Positions 2,263 through 29,869 of a DNA stretch of 64,000 bases are shown piece after piece. Source of the DNA: Myxococcota bacterium (GTDB taxonomy: Bacteria > Myxococcota_A > UBA9160 > PR03); the NCBI GenBank assembly GCA_041611735.1, contig JBFIML010000003.1, forward strand, positions 64,001 through 128,000. Direction: 5' to 3'. The notes below the pieces were generated by a model. The model was given only the letters and a program-made list of their open reading frames with translations, was not told the origin of the DNA and did not search any database. The translations under genes were made by a program, and so were the position numbers. How positions within the stretch are numbered: the first letter of the stretch is position 1; each line of letters starts with the position of its first letter.

Positions 2263-3447
2263 ATGGCCCGAATCGTGATCAACGGCTACATGATCCGGCA
2301 TCCCGTCGCCGGGAACACCATGGCCTACCTGCACTACGTGCTCGGCTTCGCTCGCCTTGGGCACGAGGTTGTGTACGTGGAAGAAAGCGGCTGGCCGAAC
2401 TCGTGCTACGACCCCTACAAGCACGAGATGGGTGACGACCCCAGCACCGGGATGGCGGTGGTTTCGGCCCTCGCCAGGCAGTACGGGCTCGAGCTCCCCC
2501 TGTACTACGTGAACCGGGACACCCAGGCGGTGCATGGCGGCGAGTGGAGCGACTTGACCCGCCACCTGGACGCGGCGGATCTTCTCCTCAACGTGGGCGG
2601 CGTGTGCTGGCTGCCCGACTTCCTGCGCTGCCAGCGCCGCGCCTACGTGGACATGGACCCCGGGTTCACCCAGCTGGGGCGCTTCGGAGCCGAGGCCGTG
2701 GCGAACCACCAGGTGCATTTCACCTACGGAGCCAACTTCCAGCAGCCGGATTGCTCGATCCCGGACGACGGCATCGACTGGCGGCCGACCGTCCCCCCGG
2801 TCGTCACCGACCTCTGGAACGGGGCCGTCCCGGCCGAGCCGGCGGACTCGTCCGGGAAGCTCCAGAACGGCTCGCTCACGACCATCACCAACTGGAACCC
2901 GTACGGCTCGGTCACCCATGGGGGCCGCCGCTTCGGCCAGAAGGACGAGGAGTTCCTGCGTATCCTCGAACTCCCGCGGCGCACTTCGCAGGCCATCGAG
3001 CTCACCCTCTCCGGCGCCGGCGCCGACGTGGAGCAGCGCCTGCGAACCGCCGGCTGGCGGATTCGTCCGGCGCGGGAGGTCAGCTCCCACTTCCGGACGT
3101 ATCACGCCTACATCATGGGATCGCGCGGGGAGTTCAGCGTGGCCAAGCACGGCTATGTGGTCACCCGCAGCGGCTGGTTCAGCGACCGGAGCGTCTGCTA
3201 TCTCGCGGCCGGTCGACCCACGATCCTCCAGGACACGGGCTTCAGCAGCTGGCTCCCCACCGGGCGGGGCGTACTCGCCTTCTCGAACCTCGAAGAGGCG
3301 GTCGGCTGCATCGACGCCCTCAATGCCGACTATGCGGGTCACTGCACAGCGGCCCGCGAGATCGCCGAGACCACGTTCGGCTACCGCGCGGTGCTGCCCA
3401 GATTGCTGGACCAGGCGCTGGGCGGACCGGCTTCGAGCCGCGCGTGA
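2263..3447 (+). CDS. Uncharacterised glycosyltransferase-like protein (GT-B fold predicted), paralog 2
   Basis: N-terminal RIVINGY...HPVAG...YVLGFARLGHEVVYVEE is typical of GT-B N-domains; C-terminal GSRGEFSVAKHGYV...WFSDRSVCYLAAGRP. Confidence 0.72.
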   Translation: MARIVINGYMIRHPVAGNTMAYLHYVLGFARLGHEVVYVEESGWPNSCYDPYKHEMGDDPSTGMAVVSALARQYGLELPLYYVNRDTQAVHGGEWSDLTRHLDAADLLLNVGGVCWLPDFLRCQRRAYVDMDPGFTQLGRFGAEAVANHQVHFTYGANFQQPDCSIPDDGIDWRPTVPPVVTDLWNGAVPAEPADSSGKLQNGSLTTITNWNPYGSVTHGGRRFGQKDEEFLRILELPRRTSQAIELTLSGAGADVEQRLRTAGWRIRPAREVSSHFRTYHAYIMGSRGEFSVAKHGYVVTRSGWFSDRSVCYLAAGRPTILQDTGFSSWLPTGRGVLAFSNLEEAVGCIDALNADYAGHCTAAREIAETTFGYRAVLPRLLDQALGGPASSRA

Positions 3448-3485: not shown

Positions 3486-4784
3486 ATGCCGAGCGTGCCC
3501 GACGGACCCCGGGTCAGCATCGGCCTCCCCGTCTACGACGGCCAGAACTTTCTCGAGCCGGCGATCCGCTCGCTGCTCGACCAGACCTATCGGGACTTCG
3601 AGCTGATCATCTCCGACAACGCCTCCACCGACCGCACGCCCGAGATCTGCCGCGCCCATGCGGAACGAGACGCTCGGGTCCGCTACTCGCGCAATGCCAC
3701 CAACATCGGCGCGGCACCGAACTACAACCGCGTGTTCGAGCAGGCGCGGGGCCGCTACTTCAAGTGGGCGGCCCACGACGACGTGTGCCGGCCGGATTTT
3801 CTGCGTCGTTGCGTGCAGGCCCTGGAGTCCGATCCCGGAGCCGTGCTGGCCTTCACCCGGACCGCCACCATCGACGAGCGGGACCAGGTGATCAAGGAAT
3901 GGGAGGCGCGGCCGGCGTTCGCCGCAGGGAGCCCGCAGCAACGCTTCCGAGAGGCCCTGCGGCCCCGGGAGACGCACCCGATCTGGGGACTGATGAGAGT
4001 GGAGGTCCTGCGGCGAACTCCCTTGTTCGGCAGCTATCCCGGGCATGATCTCCCACTGCTGGCCGAGCTGGCCCTGCTTGGCCGCTTTCACGAGATTCCC
4101 GAGGTGCTCTTCCTGCAGCGCGAGCACCGCGGCCGTTCCGTACGGCGATACGACTTCCGCAATCCCCATCGCGCCGTGGTCTGGTACGATCCGAGCAAGG
4201 CAGGCAGACTGATCTTTCCGCGCTGGCGACTGCTGGCCGAGTACGCCGCCGCGATCCGGCGCGCGCCGCTTCGCGCCGGGGAGCGCCTGCGCTGCTGGCG
4301 AGAGCTGTTGCCCTGGTTGCGCGGCTCGGCCGCGGCCCTGCTGGGGGACCTGATCTGGGCCATGGGGCGCATCCCCGGATTGGGAAAGCCGATGCGCGCC
4401 GGCTACCGGCGGGTGGTTCACGCCCTGGAGCAGGCCCGGCTGCGCCGGGTGGCGCGGGGCATCCGCGCGGTCACCGACGATCGGGACGTCGTCCTCCTCG
4501 TCGGGGACTGCTGGTTCGAGAGCGAGAAGTTCCTGCGCCGGAAGACGCTGCCGTTCCTGGAACGCGGGGGCCGCTACTTCGGGGCCCCAGCCGACGATGA
4601 GACGGCCATCCGCGAACTCGAGCGGATGCGGCGCGAGGGAGCCACCCACATGGTATTCGCCTGGCCCAGCTTCTGGTGGCTCGACCACTACACGAAGCTC
4701 GGCGAGTACCTGCGTTCCCACTTCCACACCGTGCTCGAGGACCGACGTGTGGTCGCCTTCGAGCTGCACGCGCCCCGGAGTTGA
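3486..4784 (+). CDS. Glycosyltransferase family 2 with additional C-terminal domain
   Basis: ATG at 3486; VSIGLPVYDG, ISDNASTD, FKWAAHDD GT-A motifs. Confidence 0.9.
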   Translation: MPSVPDGPRVSIGLPVYDGQNFLEPAIRSLLDQTYRDFELIISDNASTDRTPEICRAHAERDARVRYSRNATNIGAAPNYNRVFEQARGRYFKWAAHDDVCRPDFLRRCVQALESDPGAVLAFTRTATIDERDQVIKEWEARPAFAAGSPQQRFREALRPRETHPIWGLMRVEVLRRTPLFGSYPGHDLPLLAELALLGRFHEIPEVLFLQREHRGRSVRRYDFRNPHRAVVWYDPSKAGRLIFPRWRLLAEYAAAIRRAPLRAGERLRCWRELLPWLRGSAAALLGDLIWAMGRIPGLGKPMRAGYRRVVHALEQARLRRVARGIRAVTDDRDVVLLVGDCWFESEKFLRRKTLPFLERGGRYFGAPADDETAIRELERMRREGATHMVFAWPSFWWLDHYTKLGEYLRSHFHTVLEDRRVVAFELHAPRS

Positions 4785-4786
4785 GC

Positions 4787-6058
4787 ATGGCCATCCAGAC
4801 GATCCAGCCGCGGCCGGCCCTCGAGCAGGCCGTGGCGTGCCGGGCCTGCGGGCACCCCCTCGGTGAGCCCTTCCTGGACCTCGGCATGATGCCCCTGGTG
4901 AACAGCTACCGCTCACCCGAGAGGCTGGCCGAGGCGGAGCCCTTCTTTCCGCTCCGGGTCCAGTTCTGTGAGCGCTGCTACCTGGTGCAGCTCGAGCACG
5001 TCGCGTGTCCGGACCAGGTGTTCAGCGAGTACGCCTATTTCTCGTCGTACTCCGACAGCTGGCTTCGCCACGCACGACAGTACTGCCACGACATGGTCCG
5101 CCGCCTCGGACTGACGCCGGAGCAGCACGTGGTCGAGATCGCCAGCAACGACGGGTACCTGCTGCAACACTTCGTGCCGTTCGGAATCCCCGTGCTCGGC
5201 ATCGAGCCGGCGGCCAACGTGGCCGCCGTCGCCCGGGAGAAGGGCATCGAGACGCTGGTCGCCTTCTTCGGGGAAGAGACGGCGCGGCGGCTGCGGGATG
5301 CCGGGAAGACCGCGGACCTCCTGGTGGCGAACAACGTGCTCGGCCACGTGCCGCGGCCCGACGATTTCCTCGCGGGAGTGAGCGTGCTGCTCGAGGCCCG
5401 CGGCGTGGCCACCTTCGAGTTCCCCCACCTGCTCCGGCTCGTGGTGGAGACGCAGTTCGATACCATCTATCACGAGCACGTCTCCTACCTCTCGCTGCAT
5501 GCGCTGGACGGCCTGCTGGCCGCCTGCGGCCTGGTTGCCTTCGACGTCGAGGAGCTCCCGACGCACGGGGGCTCGCTGCGGGTCCACGTGTGCCACGCCG
5601 GGCGCGCCGCGCGGGCTCCGACGCCCGCCGTGGAGGCCGTGCGCGAGCACGAGCGGGCGGCCGGAGTGACGCGGAGCGAACGTCTGCACCGCTTCGCCGC
5701 CGACGTGGTGCGGGTCAAGTGCGGGTTGCTGGAGTTCCTGAGCGATGCCAGGCGCCAGGGCCTGCGCAGCGCGGCCTACGGGGCGGCCGCCAAGGGAACG
5801 GTGCTCCTCAACTACTGCGGCGTCGGACGCGAGTTCGTGGAGTTCGTCGTGGACCGCAGCCCCCACAAGCAGGGGCGCTTCGTCCCGGGCACGCTGATCC
5901 CCATTCGCGACCCCTCGGTCGTCTTCCAGGAGCGGCCCGACCTGCTCCTGATCCTGCCCTGGAACCTGCGCGAGGAGATCATGCAGCAGATGTCGGGCAT
6001 CCGGAGCTGGGGAGGGCACTTCGTGGTGCCCGTGCCGGAGGTCCAGGTCCATGCCTGA
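4787..6058 (+). CDS. NDP-sugar C-methyltransferase (Zn-binding N-domain, SAM domain, C-terminal domain)
   Basis: CRACG...CERC Zn motif, VEIASNDG, FDTIYHEHVSY, YGAAAKG, VDRSPHKQG, ILPWNL. Confidence 0.92.
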   Translation: MAIQTIQPRPALEQAVACRACGHPLGEPFLDLGMMPLVNSYRSPERLAEAEPFFPLRVQFCERCYLVQLEHVACPDQVFSEYAYFSSYSDSWLRHARQYCHDMVRRLGLTPEQHVVEIASNDGYLLQHFVPFGIPVLGIEPAANVAAVAREKGIETLVAFFGEETARRLRDAGKTADLLVANNVLGHVPRPDDFLAGVSVLLEARGVATFEFPHLLRLVVETQFDTIYHEHVSYLSLHALDGLLAACGLVAFDVEELPTHGGSLRVHVCHAGRAARAPTPAVEAVREHERAAGVTRSERLHRFAADVVRVKCGLLEFLSDARRQGLRSAAYGAAAKGTVLLNYCGVGREFVEFVVDRSPHKQGRFVPGTLIPIRDPSVVFQERPDLLLILPWNLREEIMQQMSGIRSWGGHFVVPVPEVQVHA

Positions 6059-8600: not shown

Positions 8601-11294
8601 ATGACGGGCAGCCGCCGCGTCGCCAGGCGACGCGGAGCGAAGCCGCGCGCCAGCACCACCTCCGCCACGCGCGCTTCGCCTGCGACCAGGCAACGCGCGG
8701 CCTCCCATCGCCTCGCTCCTCACGTCCTTCCGCACGAGTACCACGTCCACGTGGAGGTGGATCCCGGCAGAGGCTCCACCTTCCGGGGTGAGGTGGACGT
8801 GCGGCTCCGCCTGGGCCGGTCCTGCCGCAGGGTCGAGCTACACGCCGCCGATCTGAGGGTGGCTCGCGCGCGCTTCCAGACGGCGGGGAGCGTCCGGCGC
8901 GGCCGCATCGAGGAGCGACCGGAGCGCGAGACGATCTGCGTCCACTTCGACCCGCCGCTCCCGGCTGGTGAGGGCACCTTGCGCCTCGCCTTCTCCGGAC
9001 GGCTGAGGCACGACCTGCGCGGCCTCTACGGCGCCTCGGCGGAAGGGCGTCGCTACGCCTTCACGCAGCTGGAGGCAGCCGACGCACGGCGCTTCTTCCC
9101 GTGCTTCGACGAGCCAGCCATGAAGGCCCGCTTCCGCCTGGCCGTGACCACGGGAGCCGGCAACCAGGTGATCTCCAACGCACCGATCGCCCGGACGGAG
9201 CGTCGCGACGACGGCCGCCGCACCGTGCACTTCGAGGCCACTCCTCCGCTGTCCACCTACCTGGTGGCGCTGGCCGTGGGCGCGCTCGAGGCCACGGAGC
9301 CCACGGCGCTGGGCCCGACCCCGATCCGCGTGTGGCATCCGCCGGGCAAGGGCCACCTCACCGGCTTCGCGCTGGAGGCGGCGCGCGAGTGCCTGCAACG
9401 GCTCGAGGAGTACTTCGACCTCGCCTATCCCTACGCGAAGCTCGACCTGGTGGCCGTGCCGGACTTCGAGGCAGGGGCCATGGAGAATGCCGGCGCGGTC
9501 TTCTTCCGTGAGACGCTGCTCCTGGTGGATCCCGCCACCGTGACCCTGACCGAGAGGAAGCGAGTGGCCGAGGTGATCTGCCACGAACTCGCCCACATGT
9601 GGTACGGCGACCTGGTCACCATGGCCTGGTGGGACGACCTGTGGCTGAACGAGGCCTTCGCCACCTGGATGGCCTTCCACGTGGTGGACCGCTGGCAGCC
9701 CGGCTGGAAGATGTGGCACGACTTCCAGCACCACCGCGCCGCGGCGCTGCGGCTCGATGGGCTGCGACACACCCATCCGATCCACAGCGAGGTGCGAAGC
9801 CCTGCCGAGGCCACCCAGAACTTCGATCTGATCACCTACGAGAAGGGAGCCTCCGTGGTGCGCATGATCGAGCGCTACCTGGGCCCGGAGACCTTCCGCA
9901 GCGGCGTGCGCACCTACATCCGTCGGCATCGGGAAGGGAACGCCACGGGCTCGGATCTGTGGCGTGCGCTCTCGGAGGCGGCCGCTGAGCCGGTGGAGCC
10001 GATCGTGCGCGGCTGGATCGAGCAGGCGGGGCTGCCGCTGGTGGCGCTTCGCCGTCGCGGCCGCGACGGGGCGCTTCGCGTCGAGCTGCGGCAGGAGCGC
10101 TTCCGGGCGGATGCGCGCCCGGGTGCGAGTCGGCAGGGGGGCCCCGCGCGGTCGCCACGCTGGCCGATCCCCTGGGTGGGGCAGATCGGCGACGCCCGGG
10201 GAGGGACGCGCGTCGCGCGGCACCTCCTGCGTCGTGCCCGCGAAACGGTGGAGCTCGGAGCGGAGCCGATCGCCTTCCTCTACGGCAACGCCGACGAGGG
10301 CGGCTTCTTCCGCCCGCTCCACGACGCCTCCGAGCTGGAGTGCCTGGGTCGGCATCGCCAGCGCCTCACCGCCGTGGAGCGCATGGGGCTGGTGGACCAC
10401 CAGTGGACCCTGGCCCGCGCGGGACGCGCCCCGCTGCAGGGCTTCCTCGAGCTGGTGGAGCACCTGGCCGACGAGCCGGATCCGGACGTGCTGCTGGCCC
10501 TGCGTGGCCCCTTGGGCTTCCTGGAGGACCGCCTCGCCGGGGCCGCGGGTGCCGGGGCCCCCGACCGCCTGCGGGCCTGGCTCGTGCGCCTGTACCGGGG
10601 TCCGCTGGCGGCCCTCGGCTGGGACCCGGCCGAGGACGAGCCGAACGACCCGCGGCTGCGACGGGCCGCGCTGCTCGGGATCCTCGGGGAGGTGGCCGCG
10701 TGGCCCCCGGTCCTGGAGCAGGCGGCGCAGCGCTTCCGGGCCTTCCTGGCCGACCGTCGCTCCCTGGACCCGAACCTGGCCGACGTGGTGGTGACCCTGG
10801 CCGCCCGAACCGGCGACGCGGCGCGCTTCGCCGCGCTGCTCGACGCCCTGGGGGATGCGGCGACGCCCCAGGAGCGACGCCGGTTCCTCCTCGCCCTCGG
10901 GGATTTCCGCCCTCCCGAGCAGGTGGACCGCGCCCTCGCGCTGACCCTCTCCCGGCGGGTCCCGACCCAGGACGTGGCCTTCCTGCTGGCGCGCCTGCTG
11001 CGGAACCCGGCCGGGCGCGAGCGCAGCTGGGGCTTCGTGAAGCGGCGCTGGTCGACCCTGCGTCGGCGCATGCCGCCCATGCTCGTGACCCGTCTGGTGG
11101 AGGCCACCCCCGCGCTCGGGGCGCCGCGCTGGCGTCGCGACGTGGCCGCCTTCTTCCGGACGCACCCGCTCCCCACCGGAACGCGCGCCCTGCGCCAGGC
11201 GCTGGAGCGCTTCGATCTGGACAACGCCTTCGTGCGCAGGGAAGCCGCCGGCCTGGGCCGCTGGCTCGCGGCCCGGGAGCCCCACGTCCAGTAG
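8601..11294 (+). CDS. M1-family zinc aminopeptidase with ERAP1-like C-terminal domain
   Basis: GAMEN motif, HELAH followed by LWLNE zinc motif, YEKGA; ATG at 8601 after AGGGGG. Confidence 0.95.
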   Translation: MTGSRRVARRRGAKPRASTTSATRASPATRQRAASHRLAPHVLPHEYHVHVEVDPGRGSTFRGEVDVRLRLGRSCRRVELHAADLRVARARFQTAGSVRRGRIEERPERETICVHFDPPLPAGEGTLRLAFSGRLRHDLRGLYGASAEGRRYAFTQLEAADARRFFPCFDEPAMKARFRLAVTTGAGNQVISNAPIARTERRDDGRRTVHFEATPPLSTYLVALAVGALEATEPTALGPTPIRVWHPPGKGHLTGFALEAARECLQRLEEYFDLAYPYAKLDLVAVPDFEAGAMENAGAVFFRETLLLVDPATVTLTERKRVAEVICHELAHMWYGDLVTMAWWDDLWLNEAFATWMAFHVVDRWQPGWKMWHDFQHHRAAALRLDGLRHTHPIHSEVRSPAEATQNFDLITYEKGASVVRMIERYLGPETFRSGVRTYIRRHREGNATGSDLWRALSEAAAEPVEPIVRGWIEQAGLPLVALRRRGRDGALRVELRQERFRADARPGASRQGGPARSPRWPIPWVGQIGDARGGTRVARHLLRRARETVELGAEPIAFLYGNADEGGFFRPLHDASELECLGRHRQRLTAVERMGLVDHQWTLARAGRAPLQGFLELVEHLADEPDPDVLLALRGPLGFLEDRLAGAAGAGAPDRLRAWLVRLYRGPLAALGWDPAEDEPNDPRLRRAALLGILGEVAAWPPVLEQAAQRFRAFLADRRSLDPNLADVVVTLAARTGDAARFAALLDALGDAATPQERRRFLLALGDFRPPEQVDRALALTLSRRVPTQDVAFLLARLLRNPAGRERSWGFVKRRWSTLRRRMPPMLVTRLVEATPALGAPRWRRDVAAFFRTHPLPTGTRALRQALERFDLDNAFVRREAAGLGRWLAAREPHVQ

Positions 11295-24465: not shown

Positions 24466-25350
24466 CTACTCCCCGGCGGCCGCCGCGGCGCGGATCTCGG
24501 CCACCACGAGCTCCGGACGCTGCATGGGGATCAGGTGCCCCGTGTCGGCGTCCACCACCTCCGCCGCGCGCATGCCGGCGGCGAGCTTCTCGTAGGCGGC
24601 GCGCGAGAAGTCCCCGTGCCGGGCCCAGAGGATCCGGGTCGGCGCCAGGACCTGGGCCGCCAGGCCGAAGACGTCCAGGCTTCCGCTGTTCTCGAAGATG
24701 GTGGCCTCCACCTCCGGCGAGCACTTGAGCGTCACCCGGCCGTCCGGCAGCTCCCGCAGCCCGTCCGCCGCGTAGGCGTCCAGGGCCTGCGGATCCCAGC
24801 CCGCAAAGAAGCGGCGTCGGGCCCAGCTGGCGCGCGCTTCGTCGCGGCTCGGCCAGATCTCCCGTCGGCGACGGGCCGTGGCGGCCAGCAGGCGGATGCG
24901 CCGCATGCGGTCGGGGTCCGGCCGCATTCCGGGCGGGAGCGGCAGCACCGGATCGAGGAGCAGCAGCCGCCCGAAGAGCTCGGGCCGCCGGGCGGCGGCG
25001 GCGAGCGTGGCGGTGCCCCCGAAGGAGTGTCCGACGCCCACCGCCACCCGGCCGTCCGGATGCTCGGCGGCGAGGCGGGCGGCCACCTCCACCAGGTCGT
25101 CCACGAAGCGGTCCCAGAGGAAGGCCCGGGTCTCCGGGGGGCGGTCCGAGTCCCCGTGGCCGCGAGCGTCGATCGCCACCACCCGATGGCGTCCCGCCAG
25201 GGCCTCGGCCACCGGCGTCCACAACCCGGCGCAGAAGCCGTTGGCATGGTGCAGGAGGACGAGAGGACCCCGATCCCCCCACTCGGCGAGGGCGAGCACG
25301 AGCCCCGCGTCGGCGAGGCGCAGGCGACGTCGACGCGGGGCCCGCGTCAT
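24466..25350 (-). CDS. Alpha/beta fold hydrolase
   Basis: HHANGF oxyanion region, DARGHGDS, GHSFGG nucleophile elbow, GHLIPM. Confidence 0.9.
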   Translation of the reverse strand: MTRAPRRRRLRLADAGLVLALAEWGDRGPLVLLHHANGFCAGLWTPVAEALAGRHRVVAIDARGHGDSDRPPETRAFLWDRFVDDLVEVAARLAAEHPDGRVAVGVGHSFGGTATLAAAARRPELFGRLLLLDPVLPLPPGMRPDPDRMRRIRLLAATARRRREIWPSRDEARASWARRRFFAGWDPQALDAYAADGLRELPDGRVTLKCSPEVEATIFENSGSLDVFGLAAQVLAPTRILWARHGDFSRAAYEKLAAGMRAAEVVDADTGHLIPMQRPELVVAEIRAAAAAGE

Positions 25351-25375
25351 CCGGGCTGCGAGCTGCCGACGACGC

Positions 25376-25903
25376 CTAGCGAGCGGGGGCCAGGGCGCCC
25401 GCCAGGAGCGCCGGGCGGCCGTCCACGTCGCCGACGCGGGCCAGCAGGGTCCCGTCCTCCGCGTGGGCAGCCACCGCATTCGCCTCCCGCACCAGGCGGA
25501 AGCGACGCTCGAAGCCGTCCGTACCCCGGATCGCCACGGCGATGGCGCCGTCCGCCTGGAGGGTCAGCGTCGCCTGGGAGCCATCCGGACCCTGAACCAC
25601 GCGCGTGGCGCCCGCGGCGTGGGGCTGCACCGGGTTCTCCCCCGTCCAGAACTCGATCGAGTTGGTGATCAACGCGTCGATCCAAGCTGCCAGCCCGTAG
25701 ATCGGAATCACGTTCAGCACCAGGAAGACGAACCAGCGCATCCACTTGTCGGGGCTCACCTGCTGGTTGAAGTGGTAGACGTTGCGCACCAGCTGGAAGC
25801 GCCCGAAGCACCCCACCGTGGCGAGCGGCAGGAAGGCCAGGAGCAGCCCCGCCCCGGCGAACCGCCGCCAGGCGTTCGATCCGAGCCAGCCGTTCTCGTG
25901 CAT
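25376..25903 (-). CDS. DUF3332-family putative lipoprotein
   Basis: Signal peptide ending TVG-C, CFGRFQL, IPIYG...DALITNSIEFWTGENP. Confidence 0.8.
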   Translation of the reverse strand: MHENGWLGSNAWRRFAGAGLLLAFLPLATVGCFGRFQLVRNVYHFNQQVSPDKWMRWFVFLVLNVIPIYGLAAWIDALITNSIEFWTGENPVQPHAAGATRVVQGPDGSQATLTLQADGAIAVAIRGTDGFERRFRLVREANAVAAHAEDGTLLARVGDVDGRPALLAGALAPAR

Positions 25904-26013
25904 CGCGATCCCCCCTTTTCCTTCGTGGGCGGGCGCAGTCTACCACTCCGGGTGCGGTCGGCTGCCCCGCTGGGAAGCGGCGTCCCGCCCCGCGCCGTGG
26001 TTCACTGGTGGGC

Positions 26014-26862
26014 ATGGGCAGGGCAGCGCGCCGTGGGGCCGGGGCCCAACCCCGGGGCCCGTATCTCGCCGGCGCCTTGCGCGCCGAGTTCGACGCCTGG
26101 CTCGCCGCGACCGTGGCGCGCTTCGTGCCGCCCCTCGTTTTCCGGGAGGTGCGCAAGGGGGTCCAGGCCCTCTCGTCCCTGTACGTGGAGCGGCGCGGCG
26201 AGGGGGAGCTGGCAGCCCGGGCCCGGTCGGGGAGTGGAAAGCGGGCGGCGCTGGCCACCTACTACGCGCCGCTCCACTTTCTGGCCGTACACCACGCCCT
26301 GGCCCGCATCGGACCGGCGCGGCTCGGCGTCGTGGAGCGCCTGATCGACCTGGGCTGCGGCACGGGAGCGGCGGGGGCCGCCGTGGCCTGCGCTTTCGAG
26401 AAACGCCCCGAGACGCTGGCCGTGGACTGCTCCGGCTTCGCCCTGGCGGAGGCTCGACGCACCCACGCGGCCTTCCGCATCCCGGCCCGCACGCGCCGCG
26501 GTGCGCTTCCGGGCGCCGCATCCACGCCGCGCCCGGGCGAGCTGGTGTTCCTGGGCTGGACCGTGAACGAGCTCGACGACGCCGAACGCCGGGAGCTCCT
26601 GACGACGCTGGCGGCGGGCCTCGCGGCGGGAGCTCGGCTGCTGGTGGTGGAGCCCCTGGCGGGACGCGTCGCTCCCTGGTGGCCGGCCTGGCGGGAGCAC
26701 CTGGCCCCGCTCCGGGTCCAGGAGCATCGGATCAAGCTGCGGCTGGTGCTTCCGGAGTGGATCGCGCGGCTCGACCGGGCGGCAGGCCTCGACCACGGGG
26801 AGCTCGGGGCGCGGTTGCTGGCCGGACCGCTCCGGCCCGACGCGTCCGGGTCGCCGTCCTGA
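26014..26862 (+). CDS. Class I SAM-dependent methyltransferase (Rsm22-like)
   Basis: ALATYYAPLH, LIDLGCGTGA, WTVNEL, LLVVEP; start uncertain (26008 or 26014). Confidence 0.75.
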   Translation: MGRAARRGAGAQPRGPYLAGALRAEFDAWLAATVARFVPPLVFREVRKGVQALSSLYVERRGEGELAARARSGSGKRAALATYYAPLHFLAVHHALARIGPARLGVVERLIDLGCGTGAAGAAVACAFEKRPETLAVDCSGFALAEARRTHAAFRIPARTRRGALPGAASTPRPGELVFLGWTVNELDDAERRELLTTLAAGLAAGARLLVVEPLAGRVAPWWPAWREHLAPLRVQEHRIKLRLVLPEWIARLDRAAGLDHGELGARLLAGPLRPDASGSPS

Positions 26863-27869
26863 GCCCGGCGCCGTTCGTCTCCGTGCTGCTCCCGGCCCGC
26901 GACGCCGCCGCAACGCTCCCGGCCTGCCTCGCCAGCGTGCGGCGCCAGAGCGAGACCCGCTTCGAGTGCGTGGTGGTGGACGACGGCTCGCGCGACGCCA
27001 CCCGGGCCCGCGCCCGGGCGGTGGCGGCGTGCGACCCGCGCTTCCGGGTGATCGCCCAGCCGGCCCGCGGCCTGGTCCCGGCGCTCCAGGCCGGCCTGGC
27101 CCGCTGCCGGGGCCGCTACGTGGCGCGCATGGACGCCGACGACGTCATGCACCGACGCCGCCTGGAGCTCCAGGCGGCCGCCCTCGAGGCGGCCCCCCGG
27201 CTGGCCGGCGTCGGCTGCCACGTGCGGGTCTTTCCGCGCCGCGAGCTGCGCGACGGCCTGCGCGACTACGAGCGCTGGCTGCGCGGCATCGACTCCCCGC
27301 GCCGCGTGCGGGAGGAGGCCTTCGTCGAGTGTCCCCTGCCGCACCCCACCTGGATGCTGCGCCGCGACGTCCTCGCCACGGTGGGCTACCGGGATGCGGG
27401 CTGGCCCGAGGACTACGACCTCCTGCTGCGGCTCCTGCAACGCGGCGGAGAGCTGGGCGTGGTGCCTCGCCGCCTGCTGGCCTGGCGCGACCGGCCCGAG
27501 CGCCTGTGGCGAACGAGCGGCGCCTACTCCCCGCTGCGCTTCCTGGCCTGCAAGGCCGCCTTCCTGGCCCAGGGGTTGTTGGCACGCGACGAGCGCTACG
27601 TCCTGTGGGGCTACGGCGAGACGGGCAAGGCGCTGCGCCGGGCGCTGCTCGCTCACGGCAAGCGCCCGGCCTGGATCGTGGAGCTCCATCCCGGGCGCCT
27701 GGGCGAGCACATCCACGGGGCTCCGGTGGTGCGCCCCGAGCGCCTGCCGGGCCTGCCCCGCCATCCGATCGTGGCGGCGGTCGCGGGGAGCTTCGCGCGC
27801 GGCGAGATCCGCGGGATGCTCGCCCGCCTCGGCTTCCGGGAGCTGGTGGACTTCGTGTGCGCCGCCTGA
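26859..27869 (+). CDS. Glycosyltransferase family 2 with C-terminal Rossmann-like domain (B3GNTL1/QTGAL-like)
   Basis: VSVLLPARD, VVDDGSRD, ARMDADDVM, PHPTW, WPEDYDL, LWGYGETGK; start uncertain (CTG overlapping the upstream TGA). Confidence 0.85.
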   Translation: MSPAPFVSVLLPARDAAATLPACLASVRRQSETRFECVVVDDGSRDATRARARAVAACDPRFRVIAQPARGLVPALQAGLARCRGRYVARMDADDVMHRRRLELQAAALEAAPRLAGVGCHVRVFPRRELRDGLRDYERWLRGIDSPRRVREEAFVECPLPHPTWMLRRDVLATVGYRDAGWPEDYDLLLRLLQRGGELGVVPRRLLAWRDRPERLWRTSGAYSPLRFLACKAAFLAQGLLARDERYVLWGYGETGKALRRALLAHGKRPAWIVELHPGRLGEHIHGAPVVRPERLPGLPRHPIVAAVAGSFARGEIRGMLARLGFRELVDFVCAA

Positions 27870-27878
27870 CGCGGCGGC

Positions 27879-28559
27879 TCACGGCGCTCCGGTCTGCGGC
27901 GCCTGCTCCAGGCGCAGCGTGCGCAGGTCCCGCAGCAGGAGATCCTCCGAGAGGAAGCCCGCACTGTAGATGTTGCGCACCTGGCCCCGCGCATCCACCA
28001 GGAAGACCTTGAGCACGTGACGCAGCAGACCCGTGGCGTGGCCCCGGGCATCCACCAGGGCGAGCACGTCCTGGCCGTAGTCTTCCAGGACGGGCTCCAG
28101 CTCGGCGCCGCTGCGGGCGGTGAGGAAGCGCCAGTCGGCCTGGGGTGCGAGGGCCCGGCGCAGGACGCCCATGCGCTCCGGCGTATCGTGGGCCGGGTCG
28201 AAGCTCACGGTCACCAGCCGCACGTGCGGGGCGAGCTGCGGGTCGGCGGCCAGGCGACGGTCCACGGCCTGGAGGACGGCCAGGGCGCTCGGGCAGACGT
28301 CGGGGCAGTGGGTATACACGAAGGACACCAGGGCCAGCGCGCCGGGGTCGCGGGCGAGGAGCGCTGCGGGGTGGCCGTCGGGATCCAGCAGCCGATGCTC
28401 CGTCACCGTCCCGATGGGCGGGAGCTCGTAGCTCCCGGGCTCGGGGAGCGAGACGGGCGCCGAGGCCGGCCGCGGCGCGGGCGGCGCCGCCGGCCCGTGG
28501 GCGGATGCCGCCGCCGCGAGGGCGAGCCCCGCCACGAGTGCCACCGCGGCGCGTCTCAC
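27879..28559 (-). CDS. SCO1/SenC copper chaperone
   Basis: Signal peptide, YTHCPDVCP (CxxxC), VSFDPAHDTP, conserved His in RHVLKVFLVD; GTG overlaps upstream stop. Confidence 0.92.
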   Translation of the reverse strand: MRRAAVALVAGLALAAAASAHGPAAPPAPRPASAPVSLPEPGSYELPPIGTVTEHRLLDPDGHPAALLARDPGALALVSFVYTHCPDVCPSALAVLQAVDRRLAADPQLAPHVRLVTVSFDPAHDTPERMGVLRRALAPQADWRFLTARSGAELEPVLEDYGQDVLALVDARGHATGLLRHVLKVFLVDARGQVRNIYSAGFLSEDLLLRDLRTLRLEQAPQTGAP

Positions 28560-29869
28560 CGGCCGCCCCCCAGCCCCGGGACCCCCTGGCTCGCCACCCG
28601 CCCGCGATAGAAGCCCTCGGCGCCGAAGCGCATGATGTGCGGGCGCCCGAGCTCCGCGGCCCGGAAGTCCACGGCGAAGCTGGGCTCCAGGCGCTGCCCG
28701 TCCCAGCGGAACGCCTTCAGGAACTGCTCGTCGTCCTCGCCCGGCTTGTCCCAGCTGGCCAGCAGGGAGGAGGTGAAGTAGACCCGCTTGCCATCCCAGG
28801 ACTGGGAGACCATGTTCACCTGCTTGCCGATCTTGCGCTCGTGGACCTGCTTCGGCTGACGCGGGTTCGAGACGTCGAAGACGCGCACCATCCCGTCCAT
28901 GAAGCTGTCCACGAACAGGAAGCGATCGTCGGCGGAGAGGCTGATGTCCACCGGGAGCGGCGTCTTGGCCGGGTCTCCCACGTCGGCCACCGCCACGGCC
29001 TCGAAGGTCCCGTCCGGCTTCAGGAAGACGCCCCAGATCTTGGAGGTGAGGGCCGTCGAGGTGAAGGCGTAGTCGTGACGCGGCTGGAGCGCCCAGCGGA
29101 TCTCGAGGGGCGCACCCGGCACCTCCAGCACCTGGAGCGGCTTCCGCGCATGGTAGTCCCACACCACCATGGTGTTGCCGAACTCCTTCATGGCCTCCGG
29201 ATCCTGGATCAGCTGGCGCAGGTCCCGCATGTAGTTCTTCTTGCCGGTGAAGGAGGAGGTGAGCATGCGGTTCAGGTTCGCGTTCACCCGCACGTCGTAG
29301 CCGTACTCGGCGCCCTCGGGCATCCAGATGGTGCGCACCGGCTCGCCGGCATTGCTGTACTCGACGAGGGCGGTGCGCCCGCCGAGGTCGCGGTCGTTGG
29401 AAAGGCCGCTGATCAGCATGCGGCCCGGCAGGGCGTAGAAGGTGTGGGGCCCCACGACACCACCGGAGCGCTCGACGAAGTCCTCGATGCGTCTGGCCAG
29501 GCGCGGGCGGGCGGGGTCCGAGGCCACGTCGAAGACGAAGATCGCGCTGGTGTCGAGGCCGCCCATCCAGAGGTGGCGCCGGTCGTCGCTGAAGCCGCCG
29601 TGGTGGGCCTCGTGGCGGCCTCCCACGGAGACCGAGGACACCACCTGGCCGTAGTCCGGGCGCGCCGGATTCGCACCCACCGTCACCAGCTTGTCGGAGC
29701 CGTCGCCGAGCCCCGGCACGCCGAGGGTCCAGACGTAGACGTAGTCCTCCTGGCCCACGAGCTTGGGCAGGTAGGGGGACTGGCAGGTTTCGTCGGCCAG
29801 GGACGCGCCGGGCAGCGTCCATGCGACCACGAAACCCAGGGCAGGCAGCAGGGCTCGCAGGCCTCGCAT
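28556..29869 (-). CDS. mtoX: SBP56-family protein, methanethiol oxidase-like, periplasmic
   Basis: Signal peptide, then DETCQSPY...GQEDYVYVWTLG, HEAHH, GPHT, SSLLASWDK, GRPHIM; coupled to SCO gene. Confidence 0.8.
   Translation of the reverse strand: MRGLRALLPALGFVVAWTLPGASLADETCQSPYLPKLVGQEDYVYVWTLGVPGLGDGSDKLVTVGANPARPDYGQVVSSVSVGGRHEAHHGGFSDDRRHLWMGGLDTSAIFVFDVASDPARPRLARRIEDFVERSGGVVGPHTFYALPGRMLISGLSNDRDLGGRTALVEYSNAGEPVRTIWMPEGAEYGYDVRVNANLNRMLTSSFTGKKNYMRDLRQLIQDPEAMKEFGNTMVVWDYHARKPLQVLEVPGAPLEIRWALQPRHDYAFTSTALTSKIWGVFLKPDGTFEAVAVADVGDPAKTPLPVDISLSADDRFLFVDSFMDGMVRVFDVSNPRQPKQVHERKIGKQVNMVSQSWDGKRVYFTSSLLASWDKPGEDDEQFLKAFRWDGQRLEPSFAVDFRAAELGRPHIMRFGAEGFYRGRVASQGVPGLGGGR

Follow-up and report, generated by a model that had tools for sequence, protein, structure and literature searches.

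What is the acceptor of a soluble bacterial glycosyltransferase whose gene is coupled to that of a methyltransferase and lies outside any glycan cluster? This question is raised by a locus of a Myxococcota bacterium, found in a stretch of 64,000 nucleotides (contig JBFIML010000003.1 of assembly GCA_041611735.1, positions 64,001 to 128,000, hereafter the window) with a base composition of about 72% G+C. The source genome is a metagenome-assembled genome (MAG) of 4.09 Mb, 95% complete. Its two genes of interest code for a family-2 glycosyltransferase, hereafter GT, and, upstream of it, for a class I methyltransferase dependent on S-adenosylmethionine (SAM), hereafter MT (Table 1). A preliminary description of the locus, made from the sequence alone, had likened GT, by its ordered motifs and its C-terminal domain, to B3GNTL1 (QTGAL), the animal enzyme that galactosylates queuosine (Q) in tRNA and that was reportedly named in a 2023 Cell paper by Zhao et al., and had suggested that the pair modifies RNA rather than cell-surface glycans. 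In our judgement, the chances are about even that GT is a bacterial queuosine-tRNA glycosyltransferase, to which a methyltransferase has been coupled in a lineage-specific manner. In this reading, drawn from sequence comparisons, the acceptor, the sugar, the target of methylation and the kinship with animal B3GNTL1 are what we infer.

Queuosine genes beside the glycosyltransferase

The main argument for this reading comes from the gene neighbourhood of GT orthologues. The flanks of GT loci, within the fetched flank, were searched with the Tgt, QueA and QueG proteins of the genome of the window. No such gene was detected near GT in the 80 closest genome loci, in 20 Gemmatimonadota loci or in 80 metagenome loci. 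Among 40 loci from three other phyla, two were positive (L125 and L137), as were 10 of 20 additional loci sampled in the order that L125 belongs to, a Planctomycetota order that also includes genome G335. GT is present in 28 of 40 genomes of this order, with one strong match only per genome. Counting L125, 11 of its 21 GT loci displayed the arrangement queA-queG-GT, with all three genes on the same strand. The start of GT overlaps the stop of queG by 4 nt (ATGA, GTGA or TTGA) in 9 of these 11, and in L160 it follows at +3. Gene picking based on the G+C content of third codon positions mis-called genes in some high-GC loci (L125 for instance), and key loci were read by direct translation. All 11 queA and queG stretches that were scanned, from 7 of the 11 operon loci, passed the NCBIfam equivalog cut-offs. 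A possible queG-GT fusion in L161 (G777:C394, around 3115-3290) was discarded, because the in-frame read-through crosses a run of N.

Operon-linked GTs are 40-87% identical to one another, with a median of 50%, so that the queA-queG-GT arrangement has survived much divergence. When six of them were searched against the genome of the window, the best match was the window GT each time; with the GT of L162, for example, the score was 184 bits for the window GT and 68 for the next match. The reciprocal alignment was full length for five of them, and covered residues 1-235 for L125. The six full-length operon-linked GTs all keep the DxD and ED motifs, Y137, W140, E157, R191, K232, the GxGxxGK motif, R280, R314 and R318; at a few other invariant columns they show single substitutions.

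By a rough estimate, if three or four named Q genes are considered, chance alone would place one of them within a span of about ten genes in some 1 of 120 loci, and a Q gene placed immediately upstream on the same strand would be expected in less than 0.1 of 120 loci. Given this low rate, and given that the operon was kept across sequences only 40-50% identical, it is unlikely to be an accident. Queuosine synthesis is completed on tRNA by QueA and QueG, which catalyse its last two steps, and a GT translationally coupled to queG would most simply act next, on Q-tRNA. That GT has the same role in the clade of the window does not follow.

Several observations weigh against a queuosine role. First, 228 of the 240 GT loci had neither tgt, queA nor queG in the fetched flank, 11 of the 12 positive ones belong to a single order, and no linkage to a Q gene was seen in the clade of the window itself. 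As related genomes are not independent, the linkage essentially amounts to one clade-level event, or at most two on the tree. The link to queuosine suggested in the preliminary description does gain independent support from the operons found among orthologues. Second, the C-terminal domain is shortened in 3 of the 11 operon-linked GTs (L125, L149 and L151), and in L125 and L149 the GxGxxG motif is missing as well. Third, tgt is universal in the phylum of the window (301 of 301 genomes), which makes its presence uninformative: the co-occurrence of tgt with GT, suggested earlier as a check, does hold, and does not discriminate. Fourth, no queA was found in G302 (a MAG of unknown completeness), one of ten GT-bearing genomes taken from ten other lineages. 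Last, section 5.3 of a 2020 review lists galactosyl-queuosine (galQ) and mannosyl-queuosine (manQ) as not found in bacteria (PMC7694415).

The genome of the window has the queuosine genes that such a role calls for, namely two copies of tgt, queA and queG, all above NCBIfam cut-offs. The two tgt copies lie outside the window, one of them next to queA (Table 1), and two tgt matches were also seen in many genomes of the same order. In the ten GT-bearing genomes from other lineages, tgt was present in all, and queA in nine, eight times above cut-off and once split in two pieces.

L137, the positive locus outside the Planctomycetota order, comes from an Acidobacteriota genome (G567:C13). Its queA (9131-10171) lies 3.3 kb from GT on the other strand, and a queD-like open reading frame (ORF, 31-438) is also nearby, so that GT has one of these two genes on each side, less than 5 kb away. 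A frameshift interrupts the GT gene of this locus (around 4780-5873, minus strand) in the part that codes for the C-terminal domain.

Domains and start codon of the glycosyltransferase

The coordinates of the genes, motifs and domains are collected in Table 1. With a divergent gene upstream and a convergent gene downstream, MT and GT form a stand-alone two-gene unit outside any glycan cluster, as had been described. The initial placement of the ORFs was also correct, the first position given then, 26014, being an ATG two codons inside the MT ORF. A scan of 25300-28300 for promoters and terminators gave nothing useful.

Table 1. Positions of the genes, motifs and domains discussed in the text. 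Coordinates are those of the window, except for the two tgt copies, which are given by genome (G000), contig and position.
Feature	Position	Strand	Basis
Divergent gene upstream of the MT-GT pair	25376-25903	-	
MT, SAM-dependent class I methyltransferase, 284 aa	26008..26862	+	ORF
CTGA junction, MT stop TGA overlapping the probable non-canonical CTG start of GT	26859..26862	+	Homology to GTGA/TTGA relatives
GT, soluble family-2 glycosyltransferase, 336 aa + stop	26859..27869	+	ORF, start by homology
GT-A catalytic domain, residues 1-240	26859..27578	+	Pfam PF00535, Foldseek
DxD motif, D92-A-D94-D95	27132-27143	+	Invariant columns
Invariant E184-D185 of WPEDYDL	27408-27413	+	Invariant columns
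Basic Rossmann-like C-terminal domain, residues 246-336	27594..27866	+	AF2 beta/alpha alternation, CoA_binding PF02629 in relatives
GxGxxGK of the C-terminal domain	27609-27629	+	
Convergent gene downstream of the MT-GT pair	from 27879	-	
tgt, first copy	G000:C8:92390-93481		
tgt, second copy, next to queA	G000:C11:75215-76318		

All the motifs first quoted for GT were recovered, in the order given: DADDVM at residue 92, RRLELQ at 100, GCHVRVFP at 119, YERW at 137, PTW at 163, VGYRDAGWPED at 175, LQRGG at 193 and WGYGETGKALRR at 250. The protein matches the Pfam family PF00535 (Glycos_transf_2) with 104 bits for a cut-off of 23.3 (E-value 1.1e-29). Its AlphaFold2 (AF2) model, computed with 102 aligned relatives (alignment A1), has a pLDDT of 97.8 and a pTM of 0.93, and Foldseek comparison of this model to the PDB returned GT-A enzymes only, over some 235 columns, at 14-23% identity and with a probability of 1.00. 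On all points looked at, profile score, GT-A fold, DxD motif and acidic base, GT has the attributes of a family-2 (GT2) enzyme. Since at least 99% of the 102 family members keep D92, D94 and D95 of the DADD motif, as well as E184 and D185, the enzyme looks catalytically competent and of the inverting type.

In the C-terminal domain, an acidic residue (E275) is found some 20 positions after GxGxxGK, and R280, R314 and R318 are conserved. The CoA_binding family PF02629 is above cut-off in this domain for some relatives (32.3 bits for P0365). The domain is basic, with a median pI of 10.0 (6.7, close to neutral, for the catalytic domain), and 92 of 102 members carry a net positive charge there. 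No hydrophobic or membrane segment was found in GT, the highest Kyte-Doolittle mean over 19 residues being 1.33.

Could GT be an ordinary glycosyltransferase of cell-envelope polysaccharides? Its relatives are automatically named "glycosyltransferase involved in cell wall biosynthesis", and the best sequence and fold matches of its catalytic domain are GT2 enzymes of polysaccharide or teichoic acid synthesis. All these matches span only the shared GT-A core, though, and all NCBIfam scores are far below cut-offs (58 bits for a cut-off of 423, for instance): GT does not group with the named lipopolysaccharide or exopolysaccharide enzymes, a grouping that would have gone against the first proposal. 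The absence of a membrane segment and of recurrent flippase, polymerase, sugar-nucleotide or other GT genes among the neighbours scanned also argues against an envelope role, as does the family-specific C-terminal domain, which is missing from the polysaccharide and teichoic acid enzymes. We therefore regard an envelope role as very improbable.

The position of the GT start had to be settled by comparison. Between 26757 and 26883, the GT frame contains no ATG, GTG or TTG, and relatives retrieved by protein search are about 335 aa long. We compared 16 adjacent MT-GT pairs, two of which were contigs taken twice, leaving 14 distinct loci. In 12 of these 14, the MT stop and the GT start, a GTG or TTG codon, overlap within 4 nt, as GTGA or TTGA; of the other two, one has a spacer of 300 nt and one is an in-frame fusion (L057). 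The window has CTGA exactly where its relatives have GTGA or TTGA, so that GT most likely starts at CTG 26859 and is 336 aa long, and this CTGA is probably the site of translational coupling between MT and GT. The stored gene-caller model (P0001) begins eight codons further, at GTG 26883, and the resulting protein of 328 aa would lose part of the first beta strand. Four public runs, including one that belongs to a different study, gave contigs identical to the window over positions 26700-26989, so that the CTGA is not a slip of one assembly.

If GT does act on queuosine, the reaction may be pictured as follows. GT would be a cytosolic, inverting enzyme dependent on a nucleotide sugar, with queuosine at the wobble position of tRNA as acceptor, and would correspond in bacteria to the queuosine galactosyltransferase of animals. 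The GT-A domain would bind the sugar nucleotide by DADD and a divalent metal, E184/D185 would serve as the catalytic base, activating a hydroxyl group on the cyclopentenediol of queuosine, and the basic Rossmann-like domain would hold the tRNA. MT, translated from the same message by way of the overlapping stop and start codons, would act on the same substrate, most simply by methylating the added sugar or the modified base.

The methyltransferase and the other neighbours of GT

We then turn to MT. The motifs first reported for it are present and in order, YYAP at residue 85, DLGCG at 114, NEL at 187 and LVVEP at 212. A helical N-terminal extension (residues 22-106) precedes the Rossmann core, whose motif I is the DLGCGTG at 114, and the AF2 model has a pLDDT of 89.8. 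Motif I, the fold model and Foldseek matches all make it a class I SAM methyltransferase. Its more precise identity is less clear. Comparison with Pfam gave weak, generic SAM-methyltransferase matches only (Methyltransf_25 is matched by 19 of 20 aligned homologues), no NCBIfam model came near its cut-off, and matches to PDB sequences were marginal (best E-value 0.001). Foldseek neighbours are generic class I methyltransferases with TM scores of 0.33-0.5: small-molecule O-methyltransferases (DnrK, RdmB, RedM), an aminoglycoside-resistance rRNA methyltransferase, METTL5 and Hen1. The label "Rsm22-like" given in the preliminary description is not retained: the Rsm22 family (PF09243) scores 22.3 bits on MT for a cut-off of 23 (HMM positions 10-141), it is matched by 5 of 20 homologues (best E-value 2.8e-6), and neither Rsm22 nor METTL17 is among the Foldseek matches listed, down to rank 50.

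The coupling of MT to GT, proposed at the outset, was in turn confirmed across genomes. MT was found in 18 of the 301 genomes of the phylum, of which 17 also carry GT and 11 have the two genes adjacent. Together with the 4-nt overlaps described above, in-frame fusions attest to the association (two clusters, P0122 and P0273, in addition to locus L057). Of the 80 closest genome loci, 7 have MT directly upstream of GT; among 140 loci that are more distant, none has MT beside GT. A tree of 152 GT sequences calls for at least two origins of the linkage. The MT-GT coupling is thus real but clade-restricted: MT is an accessory confined to a few lineages and does not characterise the GT family as a whole. 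A complex prediction for MT and GT gave a score of 0.01, which weighs neither way. Where MT is away from GT, its neighbours vary; in L106 and L107 (genomes G064 and G169), it lies directly behind a same-strand gene of 935-964 aa resembling DEAD/DEAH-box helicases.

The neighbours of GT vary between lineages as well, and those that were scanned included no glycan-cluster genes. One of these neighbourhoods, and one property of MT, add to the points that weigh against a queuosine role. In the metagenome clade closest to P0192 (L189-L268), aroQ is directly beside GT, on the same strand and at a median distance of 13 nt, in 38 of 80 loci. GT ends there a row aroA-aroE-aroC-aroK-aroB-aroQ, with aroB in 30 loci, aroK in 22, aroC in 22, aroE in 19 and aroA in 16. 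This placement at the end of a shikimate operon would suggest another role, or have no meaning at all: genes unrelated to the pathway are common in housekeeping operons, and GT could equally be one of them. As to MT, the small-molecule O-methyltransferase family PF00891 matches it just above cut-off (23.6 bits for 22.3).

These observations suggest another role, in which GT would glycosylate a soluble small molecule, such as a carbocyclic polyol or a shikimate-linked metabolite, and MT would O-methylate the product; the Rossmann-like C-terminal domain would then recognise a portion of the acceptor that resembles a nucleotide, or else a regulator. Besides the aroQ linkage and the PF00891 score, the presence of DnrK, RdmB and RedM among the fold neighbours of MT is in keeping with it, and so is the GxGxxG motif followed by an acidic residue, a combination characteristic of dinucleotide-binding proteins. 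However, aroQ, aroB, aroK and aroE were found near GT in metagenome loci only, with one extra match each for aroC and aroA, in a Planctomycetota locus, downstream and on the opposite strand, and the Foldseek matches of MT are generic, given their low TM scores. Moreover, GTs of several phyla, as judged by record titles, are 64-76% identical, which is more than is usual for glycosyltransferases of small molecules, and the queA and queG products, to whose genes GT is joined by overlapping queG in 9 loci, act on tRNA-bound substrates. On balance, a small-molecule acceptor seems unlikely to us.

Other neighbours belong to translation. In a Myxococcota clade, the gene for asparagine-tRNA ligase is convergent and downstream of GT in 14 loci, and in the metagenome clade a gene for an RluA-family pseudouridine synthase is so in 21 loci; RsgA was found in 5. 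The target of GT might be another conserved macromolecule involved in translation: either a nucleotide of rRNA, or one of tRNA other than queuosine, or else a protein, ribosomal or otherwise engaged in translation. MT would modify it too. The basic C-terminal domain would suit such a role, as would a gene that is highly conserved, single-copy and stand-alone, and weak matches of MT point to Rsm22, PrmA, CmoA and rRNA methyltransferases. Yet none of these neighbours is both on the same strand as GT and coupled to it, every such similarity of MT is at or below the family cut-off, and queA-queG is the sole dedicated-pathway operon that was found. A target of this kind is, in our view, slightly less likely still.

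Additional genes recur near GT in related genomes. In the Myxococcota clade, a DUF3604 metallohydrolase (CehA/McbA-type) is found upstream of GT in 15 loci. In the window, a gene resembling SBP56-type selenium-binding proteins and methanethiol oxidases (28556-29869, minus strand) adjoins a SCO1/SenC-like ORF, both within 27879-29869. This pair is also beside GT in six to seven related loci, with SBP56 in L024, L027, L035, L050, L062 and L068, and SCO1 in five of these (by Pfam, in the relatives only); the SCO1 ORF of L035 bears in addition a di-haem cytochrome c peroxidase domain (Pfam).

Spread of the family and comparison with known systems

How widespread is GT? A protein search with GT left 4728 of 8000 scored candidates below an E-value of 0.001, the best 120 being 64-76% identical to it. 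These 120 are all unnamed or generically named bacterial proteins. At 1e-30, 684 representatives at 50% identity pass; most of the best 150 align over their whole length, and about a fifth are fragments or partial. Judged by record titles, the family is found in Myxococcota, Binatia, Tectimicrobiota, Nitrospinota, Gemmatimonadota, Acidobacteriota, Planctomycetota and others. We then counted GT matches in samples of species-representative genomes: 131 of 301 genomes in the phylum of the window (some with the catalytic domain only), 27 of 151 in Planctomycetota, 16 of 151 in Acidobacteriota, 17 of 151 in the phylum of a Desulfuromonadales MAG (G309) and 26 of 121 in Gemmatimonadota. Genome G301 (locus L047), a MAG titled "Candidatus Limnocylindria", led to the same phylum sample as G309, so that its title and its placement conflict.

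GT is nearly always single-copy where found. A paralogue (G000:C22:12457-13143), about 41% identical to GT, corresponds to the catalytic domain only (residues 4-236) and lacks the C-terminal domain, and similar matches were seen in other genomes. Some members of the family are fused to other domains: a 2-thiouracil desulfurase (PF04463, in P0192 and P0406), CYTH (P0172), C-terminal HEAT repeats (P0432, P0436 and P0441), a UvrA-like domain (P0374) and DUF3604 (P0271). Some other long members (P0167, P0263) were not retained as true long forms, as they look like mis-called starts.

If the queuosine-tRNA reading is extended to the whole family, a sugar-adding Q-tRNA enzyme would be present in roughly 10-40% of the sampled genomes of Myxococcota, Planctomycetota, Gemmatimonadota, Acidobacteriota and Desulfobacterota, the lineage of the window would make a methylated glycosyl-queuosine, and the family might be the source of the animal enzyme. 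We put forward this wider picture tentatively, and give it somewhat less than an even chance.

We looked for the animal enzyme or its relatives in several ways. Searches with GT of PDB sequences and, by Foldseek, of PDB structures retrieved no QTGAL entry. Ten cluster look-ups of GT representatives gave bacterial MAG names only, six low-identity GT matches that were read all looked bacterial, and short-motif and composition scans of 150 GT representatives brought out nothing eukaryote-like. A profile of the C-terminal 217 residues, run against proteins of at least 381 aa, retrieved about 100 family members, then generic GT2s, none named as eukaryotic; this is weak evidence, as the method needs shared words of 5 residues. 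In the literature, no paper relevant to bacterial glycosyl-queuosine or bacterial QTGAL homologues was found by title or listing, and the term B3GNTL is absent from the eLife paper on GT-A enzymes.

Galactosyl- and mannosyl-queuosine are treated as an animal speciality. If the reading is right, this bacterial family would extend RNA glycosylation to bacteria, with a tRNA hypermodification never described there, and would offer a testable origin for the animal enzyme. It would also supply a simple soluble enzyme for Q-tRNA biochemistry and tool-making; E. coli makes Q-tRNA and, to our knowledge, has no member of this GT family. Thousands of automatic "cell wall biosynthesis" names would then have to be corrected.

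By its catalytic domain, GT is closest to enzymes of quite different function. WrtF (9omh), CgT (5hea), SpsA (1h7q) and TarS/TarP share with it the GT-A fold, the DxD motif and the acidic base (Foldseek E-values of about 1e-12 to 1e-14); heparosan synthase and RmlT are also among the PDB matches. Unlike GT, WrtF, CgT, SpsA and TarS/TarP act on glycans or teichoic acids, and they lack the basic C-terminal domain and the YxxW, HP(T/S) and WPEDYDL motifs. The likeness of MT to Rsm22/METTL17 (PF09243) comes down to a common class I SAM fold and a weak, sub-cut-off Pfam match.

In terms of substrate, a closer parallel would be GluQRS (YadB), the bacterial enzyme that adds glutamate to queuosine, giving glutamyl-Q on tRNA-Asp. 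GluQRS acts after the completion of Q, at the cyclopentenediol of Q34, and its modification is an accessory one with a patchy distribution, all of which is also proposed here for GT. It differs from GT by its fold, which resembles aminoacyl-tRNA synthetases, and by its use of ATP and glutamate, and we know of no sequence relation between the two.

The closest known system would be animal QTGAL/B3GNTL1. This enzyme is absent from flies, and its gene is present in worms (PMC12313893). According to a passage of a preprint, QTGAL makes a beta-glycoside on queuosine, at the cyclopentenediol of Q34, from UDP-galactose (bioRxiv 10.64898/2026.06.28.735034), and the assignment of GT as an inverting GT2 enzyme fits this chemistry. 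QTGAL/B3GNTL1 and GT are both inverting enzymes of the GT2 type, whereas the GT family is bacterial and, in the lineage of the window, coupled to a methyltransferase.

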